Counted from the stretch's first letter, positions 7,407 to 8,411 are shown. The stretch is 64,000 bases of DNA from Eubacteriales bacterium (GCA_045612865.1 JAZKZW010000082.1:5135-69134), one strand, 5' to 3'. Translations and numbers: made by a program. The notes: generated by a model not told the origin, from the sequence alone.

Positions 7407-8411
7407 TTATTTAATAAACTCTTTGAGGTCTGATACAATTAAATCAAGTGCTTCAACCTGATCTCTTGTGCATTGGCTAACTTTGCATCCCTTGCCCAAG
7501 TAAGTTTCAATAACTTGAGTTACTCTTGGTTGCCAATAAGTTGTAAAGGTATCATCCTCACTATTATTGACAAGAGTATTCAGAATGTCATTAAATTGAA
7601 CCATAAGATCATCAAAATCAAGTTCTTTTGCGCTTGCAAGGTGTAGATTACTTGCTTCTTCGGTGAAATATTGTGCGCCATCTTCCTCTGCTTGCTTATC
7701 AATAGCATCGCAGATTGCGTTTACGAGTGCTTGATAATTAAAGGGAATTGCTTCGGGAGTGTACTTAAATCTACTACCCGCAACGAAACGAGGTGTTCCG
7801 CGCATAAAGAGCATAGGTTGTGTTCCACCCTCTGGAAGATCAATTACGCGCGAATAGCCAATAATGTCCGCCATGCGGCTAACAATATTACGCGGCTTAT
7901 TATCAAGTGTAGGAACGATCTGATTGTACTCTTGACCATTCTGATCTTTAAAGGTCTTATCTGTTGCGTGGGAGATAAGCACAAGTCCATAGTTCATTTG
8001 AAGAATAGAACGGAGCGCTTCATCAAACTCCTTGGCCGCAAGTTTAAAGCCTTTACCATAGGCGATATCACCGATTGTATCAACGCCATTATTAGAACAA
8101 ATATACTTCTCGCAGTAGTCATAAGCGATATCCGCAGTATCCACTATGATTGTTTCGAATCTAGCCTTAACCTTTTCATCCTTTAACTGGCGCAAAGCCT
8201 TTTTAAACTCTGACCAGCTATTGATAGGTTGCGCCATTGCGCCTGGGATAGTGTTATAACCTTTTTCAAATGCGAGAAGCAGATGGTTGGGGAACTTTGT
8301 AGCGATTGTAGTTTTACCGCTTTTAGGCTCCCCGTAGAAAAACACTGAATATCCTCTTAGGTTACGGCTAACCTAGTGAGGAACTATATCTAAGAGGTTA
8401 AAATCTGCCAT
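7407..8411 (-). CDS. Sak4-like AAA/RecA-fold ATPase; upstream ATG at 8411 (good RBS) requires reading an in-frame TAG at 8373-8375, alternative GTG start at 8345
   Basis: Walker A GEPKSGKT; ATG 8411 with AAGAGGTGG RBS in frame through TAG (codon 13). Confidence 0.55.

Follow-up and report, generated by a model that had tools for sequence, protein, structure and literature searches.

We investigated in-frame TAG codons in a stretch of phage DNA of 64,000 nucleotides (nt) from a contig assigned to a Eubacteriales bacterium (JAZKZW010000082.1:5135-69134). The window, in what follows, is this whole stretch, and positions are counted from its first letter. The phage group is kin to phAss-1 and to Enterococcus phage EF1; a search of the phage collection for DNA nearly identical to the window gave no match. 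The minus strand carries nearly all transcription in the window up to about 62.9 kb, and the late region of the phage falls outside the window. Apart from homing endonuclease genes, four genes carry a TAG codon in frame. These sparse TAG codons sit near the start of the gene: each is the first glutamine (Gln) codon of its gene in the window, and across relatives such placement is found more often than expected. The four genes and the suppressor tRNA are the following.

7407..8411, minus strand: Sak4-like (YorG-like, AAA_24) ATPase gene, 334 codons (sequence, Pfam, homologues)
626..2419, minus strand: RecJ-like/YorK-like DHH exonuclease gene, 597 codons (Pfam, homologues)
21908..22399, minus strand: tRNA-adjacent gene, directly downstream of the suppressor tRNA, 163 codons (sequence, homologues)
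62972..63448, plus strand: first plus-strand gene after the strand switch (sequence, relatives)
22444..22519, minus strand: suppressor tRNA, anticodon CUA (ARAGORN and Rfam)

Genetic code of the phage

Judged by its sequence, the phage is a code-15 phage, in which TAG would never act as a terminator and would be read as Gln through the phage's own tRNA-Gln-like tRNA(CUA). The features known from such phages are present: TAG at positions where homologues have Gln, TAG unused as a stop, and a phage-encoded tRNA(CUA). The 79 genes called in the window end in TAA (52) or TGA (27), and none ends in TAG. When gene calling over the window treated TAG as sense, there was not a single case in which the TAG could be a terminator followed only by a short C-terminal extension. 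As a control, the same gene caller was rerun, taking TGA or TAA as "sense". In open reading frames (ORFs) of more than 65 amino acids, the 24 TGA cases were without exception C-terminal, i.e., true stops; with TAA most cases were likewise C-terminal, and about six of 45 were spurious N-terminal extensions. In the GIY-YIG endonuclease gene at 57764-58594, we read a typical C-terminal motif after TAG codon 252.

For three of the four genes, Q is already present at the TAG position in NCBI-derived proteins (105,973-bp contig). The Sak4-like protein and the product of the tRNA-adjacent gene are exact full-length matches, and the plus-strand gene corresponds to a 154-amino-acid call identical over 97% of the query; the source record thus seems to have been annotated with code 15 already. 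The RecJ-like protein as called here had no match in this protein set. For annotation the code matters, as standard-code callers cut these genes short; public calls of 275-290 amino acids exist for the Sak4-like protein of 334 amino acids.

Among the 25-26 tRNA genes in the window, one has the anticodon CUA. This tRNA has A1/A72 unpaired, G73 as discriminator base, the D-arm GCCAAGCGGCTAAGGC and an encoded CCA. It has a promoter-like TTGATT...TATAAT of its own upstream and a hairpin downstream. It comes closest to the phage's own tRNA-Gln(UUG), at 76%, and to what we take to be the E. coli tRNA-Gln, at 79%. Being closest to tRNA-Gln, it is probably of Gln-type identity. The gene order suppressor tRNA, 160-amino-acid protein, gyrB (window 21908-22519) is kept in the relatives L096 (5274-5880), L149-L151 and L097-L099, and three unrelated types of tRNA(CUA) occupy the site: Gln-like with 76 nt (the window and L096, whose near-identical tRNA at the syntenic site differs by one base), Trp-like with 75 nt (L149-L151), and a 97-nt type with a long variable arm (L097-L099).

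Start codons of the genes with a single TAG

The Sak4-like gene starts with ATG at 8411-8409, preceded by the ribosome binding site (RBS) AAGAGGTGG at 8425-8417, and its sense TAG is codon 13 (8375-8373), the first of 16 Gln codons. The Pfam domain AAA_24 (PF13479) covers residues 20-215 (E = 5e-42), and the Walker A motif GEPKSGKT is present. The protein is 49% identical to the annotated Sak4-like protein of Enterococcus phages (VRE9/EF1) and 33% identical to SPbeta yorG; tblastn matches in these standard-code phages start at query residue 4-7. The segment MADFNLLDIQPHQVSRD upstream of the TAG is conserved in 80 Sak4 relatives from IMG/VR, and relatives have CAG (19), CAA (5) or TAG (7) at codon 13. 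With the TAG read as Gln, the tryptic peptide that spans it would be MADFNLLDIVPHQVSR. Among the relatives is a near-complete genome (L188; ENA ERZ27297691 k141_1258013, 132,979 bp) with a Sak4 that is at least 90% identical. L188 has TAG in Sak4 at codons 13 and 198 and in the RecJ-like gene at codon 57, with 13 neighbouring genes free of TAG, and its genes are translated through TAG in a public protein set.

That three genes outside the endonuclease class have one TAG close to their start had been noticed in a sequence-only reading of this DNA, and all of its coordinates are correct. The same reading held that the other replication genes contain no TAG, which is wrong. The RecJ-like exonuclease gene has a sense TAG as codon 18 (2368-2366), the first of its 22 Gln codons. 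Its TTG start overlaps the upstream TGA (TTGA), and GGGGGAGGTG lies upstream. The protein has the domains PF01368 (DHH; 3e-11) and PF17768 (RecJ OB; 9e-7). Its alignments with SPbeta yorK and with the Geobacillus virus E3 RecJ-like protein begin at residue 1-3 and show an identity of 35-41%. At codon 18, the relatives L082-85 and L089 have TAG, and L081, L086 and L088 have Gln. Read as Gln, the TAG would fall in the tryptic peptide ...HYSAVEQVLTNR. The Sak4-like ATPase and the RecJ-like exonuclease look like the recombination pair of the phage.

The tRNA-adjacent gene has its ATG at 22399-22397 behind the RBS AAAGGAG, and its TAG is codon 3 (22393-22391), the first of five Gln codons. The 66 codons after the TAG contain no ATG, GTG or TTG. 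Homologues of this gene and of the plus-strand gene came only from a large protein search; with these queries, neither the annotated phage collection nor IMG/VR yielded any relative. Most of the 11 homologues of the tRNA-adjacent protein are 157-167 amino acids long and align from the N-terminus, and the syntenic ones share the start (MQEQK, MNKQK or MKESK). The TAG at codon 3 is found only in this window and is absent from all syntenic homologues. In the AlphaFold model (predicted local distance difference test, pLDDT, 87; predicted template modelling score, pTM, 0.80) residues 3-31 form a confident helix. Searches against Pfam and PHROGs returned no match, and Foldseek found nothing in the PDB below E = 0.5. 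A resemblance to release factors was considered and rejected, as release-factor chains occurred only among the non-significant Foldseek matches (TM about 0.16).

An alternative explanation for these arrangements is that the upstream ATG and the TAG are fortuitous, with the genes truly starting at downstream GTG or ATG codons and the TAG being the stop of a preceding frame. The GTG at codon 23 of the Sak4-like gene is indeed preceded by AAGAGGA, a GTG directly follows the TAG of the RecJ-like gene, and the calls with TAA as sense show that spurious N-terminal extensions do arise. However, the alignments to homologues, from standard-code phages as well as from about 90 metagenomic relatives, extend upstream of the TAG, where residues are conserved, and show Gln codons at the site itself. 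In the Sak4-like protein the AAA_24 domain begins at residue 20 and would be truncated by a start at GTG codon 23; the tRNA-adjacent gene shows conservation and a confident predicted fold in the start-free stretch past its TAG; and the window has no TAG terminator. We consider this explanation very improbable overall, and the homologue alignments and the start-free stretch rule it out for the Sak4-like, RecJ-like and tRNA-adjacent genes. The comparison with homologues, which the sequence-only reading had named beside proteomics as a way to refute its own proposal, thus places the main start upstream and not at the downstream GTG or ATG: homologues align from residue 1-7, and relatives have CAG, CAA or TAG at the site. 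With an upstream start and an in-frame TAG, the full-length product needs amber suppression by the phage tRNA(CUA). The earlier proposal that the full-length products are conditional on the suppressor therefore stands. As judged from the sequences, the full-length Sak4-like, RecJ-like and tRNA-adjacent proteins each need one TAG decoded by the phage tRNA, and the same is probably true for the full-length protein of the plus-strand gene.

The likely start of the plus-strand gene is ATG 62984, with GGAG before it, in agreement with the NCBI protein of 154 amino acids. The TAG at 63107-63109 is codon 46 counted from ATG 62972 and codon 42 counted from ATG 62984; it is the first of three Gln codons and links a hydrophobic N-terminal part of 45 codons (a helix) to an ORF of 109 codons. 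The tryptic peptide across the TAG would be ...EEYLPQR, and the stop of the gene overlaps the start of the next one (TAATG, 63446-63450). For this gene only, a leaky TAG at 63107 might give two products, with a membrane peptide of 41-45 amino acids as the main one and the 109-amino-acid protein arising either as a read-through fusion or after re-initiation at ATG 63119. An ATG does lie three codons past the TAG, standard-code callers give separate ORFs of 53 and 109 amino acids in relatives, and a homologue with an uninterrupted fusion was not found. Nevertheless, three relatives keep both the TAG and the frame, and the three linker codons between the TAG and the next ATG show only synonymous changes (AGA CTA ATC to AGA TTG ATT). 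Neither downstream ATG has a conserved Shine-Dalgarno sequence (the GAAGGA before ATG 63146 is not conserved in the relatives), and TAG is nowhere else a stop in the window. This makes two products unlikely, and the gene is probably translated through the TAG from the upstream start.

Position of TAG within genes

The homing endonuclease genes form a contrast class. TAG accounts for 26 of the 119 Gln codons in the seven genes listed below, compared to four of 458 outside this class (Fisher P = 2e-15).

24949..25761, minus strand: TAG-dense homing-endonuclease-like gene, 9 TAG among 16 Gln codons
11070-12227: homing-endonuclease-like gene, 4 TAG
18491-19423: homing-endonuclease-like gene (LAGLIDADG, in the split gyrA), 1 TAG
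35176-35934, minus strand: homing-endonuclease-like gene, 1 TAG
54449-55225: homing-endonuclease-like gene, 4 TAG
57764-58594: homing-endonuclease-like gene (GIY-YIG), 2 TAG
59671-60600, plus strand: homing-endonuclease-like gene, 5 TAG

The genes at 24949-25761, 35176-35934 and 59671-60600 are paralogues with zinc-finger-like repeats (CxCxCG...SCGC) and a C-terminal FDF...EYDG.QH domain; only one of the three has a weak match to DUF5889, and their TAG counts are 9, 1 and 5.

In all four TAG-containing genes outside the endonuclease class, the single TAG is the first Gln codon. The probability of this pattern arising by chance is 5.5e-4 when pooled over 70 genes with 458 Gln codons, and 1.9e-4 when calculated from the per-gene counts (22, 16, 5 and 3). 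For a family statistic we used the orthologues of the Sak4 module in IMG/VR loci, counting each combination of gene and site once. The 49 distinct sense-TAG sites have a mean rank of 0.30 among the Gln codons (z = -4.9); 24 lie within the first fifth, and 12 are the first Gln codon versus 4.7 expected. A second method, direct ORF extension without BLAST extension, gave 57 sites and z = -3.35, and the extra sites at the extreme C-terminus in this set are probably true TAG stops of standard-code relatives. The CAG control in the same sequences shows no 5' bias (mean 0.536). The base following TAG (+4) is a purine in 70% of cases versus 66% after CAA/CAG, and thus carries no signal.

Within the IMG/VR set of Sak4 sequences, all 14 TAG sites fall within residues 8-164 of 334, even though the majority of Gln codons come further on and conservation of the protein is highest in its N-terminal part. 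The TAG at codon 198 in L188 is an additional site outside this set of 14. The TAG at codon 13 is kept across relatives that are 75-100% identical, and this retention is not significant as a sign of selection, i.e., not beyond chance, because there are too few independent lineages (about four deep ones).

A different picture of TAG placement comes from the late genes of the distant relative phAss-1. The GenBank annotation of phAss-1 uses the standard code and is fragmented, and our own gene calls were used instead. In its late (plus-strand) genes, 187 of 674 Gln codons are TAG, and these are evenly placed (mean 0.500); the 36 TAG in its minus-strand genes have a mean of 0.418. The TAG codons of phAss-1 ThyX (codon 22), NrdG (codon 39) and amidase (codon 48) lie inside Pfam domains.

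Transcription units and modules

All three minus-strand genes with a single TAG lie downstream of the suppressor tRNA gene. Upstream of it in transcription order, the 46 non-endonuclease genes on the minus strand have no TAG among 267 Gln codons, versus three TAG among 185 Gln codons in the 25 genes downstream. The machinery of the code change is thus itself written in the standard code: the tRNA needs no translation, and the 46 upstream non-endonuclease genes are free of TAG. The relatives show a similar restriction to particular genes. GyrB has no internal TAG among 62-70 relatives, including contigs that have TAG in Sak4, and the same is true in the relatives for GyrA, the RNA ligase and two of three neighbouring genes surveyed; the third (g22581) has one internal TAG site, at codon 64.

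The transcription units of the minus strand all appear to use one sigma-A-type extended -10 promoter, TGTTATAAT. This motif has fifteen minus-strand copies, mostly just after hairpin terminators, and the copies appear to delimit transcription units. The pattern TRTTATAAT has 24 matches in total versus four expected by chance on both strands together. The positions that bear on the units are listed below.

513, 7346, 9444, 15649, 21852, 23948, 25904, 26858, 29164, 37198, 42230, 43360, 53561, 57739 and 62076, minus strand: copies of TGTTATAAT
7370..7400, minus strand: intrinsic terminator directly after the Sak4-like gene (sequence)
9444..9472, minus strand: promoter-like site, TTGACT, 17 bases, TATAAT, with TG (consensus match only)

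A hairpin with a T-run, followed by a TGTTATAAT promoter, lies after the Sak4-like gene (the next promoter past its terminator being at 7346-7354), after the RecJ-like gene (hairpin at about 575-535) and after the tRNA-adjacent gene (about 21905-21870). These three are therefore the last genes of their units. Taking one gene in four or five as unit-terminal, the probability that three out of three would be so by chance is, as a rough estimate, about 0.01. The site at 9444..9472 would drive a unit of two genes, consisting of the yorF-like gene (8427-9380) and the Sak4-like gene.

Why the sparse TAG codons lie near gene starts

We favour the explanation that the position of TAG reflects a position-dependent cost of incomplete suppression, and we put its probability at roughly 0.55. 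If TAG is read as Gln by the phage tRNA, then the amount of full-length product from a gene scales with how much charged suppressor tRNA there is relative to host release factor 1. Decoding of TAG would compete with release factor 1, and each TAG would carry a risk of abortive termination. Under the classical nonsense-error cost argument, the cost of an abortion would rise with the distance from the start, and abortion would also uncouple the genes downstream. As late abortion would be costlier, TAG would survive only near starts and in unit-terminal genes for as long as the suppressor is limiting, and its position would cease to matter once the suppressor is abundant. The genes would then fall into three tiers: an early block upstream of the suppressor gene, from gyrase and ligase through the tRNA array, that is free of TAG; a replication and recombination module downstream of the suppressor gene with sparse, 5'-biased TAG; and the homing endonuclease genes, together with the late genes of relatives, in which TAG is dense (and, in the late genes of phAss-1, even). 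A delay of the Sak4-like and RecJ-like proteins, or their dose-dependence on the suppressor, would be a consequence and need not be a purpose-built switch.

Several observations weigh against this explanation. It assumes that the suppressor is limiting early in infection. The contrast between genes upstream and downstream of the suppressor gene in the window reaches only P = 0.07, the plus-strand gene is the first and not the last gene of its unit, and phAss-1 shows a weak bias on its early strand (z = -1.7). In the family statistics the unit counted is the distinct site and not the event on a tree; about half of the sites come from Sak4 and the 275-amino-acid gene at 9931-10758, and the YorH-like gene (6807-7313) is little biased. 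Furthermore, the two recombination genes again carry TAG in L188, with differing 5' sites, which fits a selected gate better than mere tolerance.

Such a selected translational gate is the main rival, and we regard it as possible, with a clearly smaller probability than the favoured explanation. One start-proximal TAG would be kept by selection in particular genes, above all those for the Sak4-like ATPase, of annealase type, and the RecJ-like exonuclease. The two proteins would appear only once the suppressor accumulates, and the onset of recombination-dependent replication would be tied to the code change through which the late genes, too, are released. Both explanations share the positional evidence, and the suppressor gene lies upstream of all three minus-strand TAG genes. 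What speaks for a gate in addition is the gene specificity: in contrast to GyrB, Sak4 has at least 14 sites, and roughly 8-10 separate lineages have a TAG within its first 66 codons. The RecJ-like gene has an early TAG in two lineages, though not at the same site: it is codon 18 in the window and codon 57 in L188. L188 shares the Sak4 TAG at codon 13, with the other 13 genes of the 12-kb locus free of TAG, and this TAG is present in every clade member from 75% to 100% amino acid identity, though 49% of the synonymous codons have switched. However, the retention of one site over about four deep lineages is not significant, the codon-3 TAG of the tRNA-adjacent gene is missing from every syntenic homologue, and codon 18 of the RecJ-like gene encodes Gln in L081 and L088, which are close relatives. 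Sak4 is free of TAG in L001-4 and L008, and in L009 it has a single TAG, which faces an invariant Trp. The following base does not differ between TAG and CAA/CAG, and gives no sign of tuning to strong or weak termination.

From the sequence alone, a position-dependent cost and a selected gate are inseparable. We offer only tentatively, as the less probable case, that the start-proximal TAG, placed at the first Gln codon of chosen delayed-early genes (here the recombination pair), is a selected device that sets up a third translational class, intermediate between early genes without TAG and late genes dense in TAG. If this were true, then recombination-dependent replication would begin once suppressor tRNA has risen far enough relative to release factor, and the temporal programme of the phage would be written partly in the place of the recoded codon inside the gene. 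The window offers a clean, small-scale case in which recoding is not all-or-none across a genome. If the 5' bias holds in other code-15 or code-4 phages, the proposed code switch during infection becomes a quantitative matter, in which cost or gating depends on the position of the codon and on the supply of suppressor.

Other observations in the window and its relatives

TAG is found at invariant or near-invariant Glu columns in a number of the IMG/VR Sak4 loci (L012, L014, L016/L033, L020-L023, L027-L029, L031, L032, L035 and L040). The columns concerned are 49 (E 58/58) and 135 (E 58/58) in Sak4, and 255 (E 33/33), 137 (E 26/27) and 12 (E 33/34) in the family of the gene at 9931; residue E49 of Sak4 is probably the catalytic Glu of the RecA-like ATPase. 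The columns facing TAG in L057/60/65/77/78 and in the clade of the window are Gln or Lys, never Glu. This points to a sublineage that may read TAG as Glu; the only reassignments that Borges et al. report for phages are TAG to Gln and TGA to Trp (bioRxiv 10.1101/2021.08.26.457843). Long contigs of the lineage with TAG at Glu include IMGVR_UViG_3300021399_000007 and 3300021387_000036. No suppressor tRNA of these relatives turned up at the Sak4 or gyrB loci or at those beside the tRNA array. L009 (IMGVR_UViG_3300028805_000058) has TAG at an invariant Trp of Sak4 (W 59/59) and at a mostly-Trp column of the 9931-family gene (W 24), which could be a different reassignment or nonsense mutations.

The gyrA gene of the window is split at the conserved YHPHG|D motif by an insert at 18236-19524 (minus strand). 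Exon 1 ends at 19525 (...MGTYHPHGK, followed by the stop), and the sequence resumes near 18235 (DSSIYGAMVRLAQ...). The insert holds the LAGLIDADG endonuclease gene at 18491-19423 with its one TAG and is probably an intron; in a search for a group I intron in the split gyrA, no Rfam model reached the gathering threshold. At the edge of the tRNA array lies a full-length ROOL RNA (RF03087, 161.6 bits; 42702-43321, minus strand). Two proteins encoded on the minus strand are unusual for the early region of a phage: one of 822 amino acids with major-vault-protein shoulder and repeat domains (30767-33235; PF11978 at 1e-25, PF17795), and an SPFH/flotillin-like protein of 510 amino acids (39756-41288). 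Also on the minus strand, ARAGORN reports a tRNA with the four-base anticodon "agtt" at 52677-52751 (Rfam tRNA, 45 bits), and Rfam finds a tRNA at 47186-47257 that ARAGORN missed; similar odd tRNAs are also present in L176 and L178.

Comparison with known systems

Known code-15 phages include crAss-like phages, Lak phages and the "Caudoviricetes code 15 clade", to which phAss-1 and the proposed Phassvirus belong (Babkin et al. 2023, PMC10607447). The phage in the window resembles them in having in-frame TAG at Gln positions, a phage tRNA(CUA) and no TAG stops; in its size class of about 100-140 kb, its long minus-strand early block and its large tRNA array; and in being kin to Enterococcus phage EF1 and to the replication genes of SPbeta. 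It differs from phAss-1 in that the RecJ-like proteins are only about 39% identical, and in that phAss-1 has three suppressor tRNAs, whereas the window has one, of a different, Gln-like type. A phage that reads TAG as Gln is thus of a known kind; the bias in start-proximal position may be undescribed.

As in the conditional-lethal amber mutants of T4 and lambda grown on supE hosts, one amber codon makes a product depend on a suppressor that inserts Gln. In the window, however, the ambers are natural and conserved in the clade, and the suppressor is encoded by the phage.

Under nonsense-error cost theory, or the translational "ramp", abortion-prone codons are tolerated early in a gene. The theory predicts an excess of the most termination-prone codon at the 5' end, and the disappearance of this excess where decoding is efficient, as in the late genes of phAss-1 with their mean rank of 0.500. 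The theory was built for ordinary sense codons with small effects, whereas here a reassigned stop codon competes with a release factor.

The timing switch proposed in the sequence-only reading is the model that Borges et al. published for recoded phages, in which stop codon recoding regulates late and lytic genes (bioRxiv 10.1101/2021.08.26.457843), and the idea is therefore not new. As in that model, the standard code largely suffices for the early genes in the window, the suppressor tRNA lies in a standard-code region, and the homing endonuclease genes are strongly recoded. Borges et al. compared genes, and not positions within genes. In their preprint and in the full-text literature searched, a limited library that makes this provisional, we found no statement on the within-gene position of recoded codons. 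Provisionally, what the window adds to the known model is the bias of TAG toward the first Gln codon and the 5' end of the gene, and the division of the early region into modules that are free of TAG and modules that are sparsely recoded.

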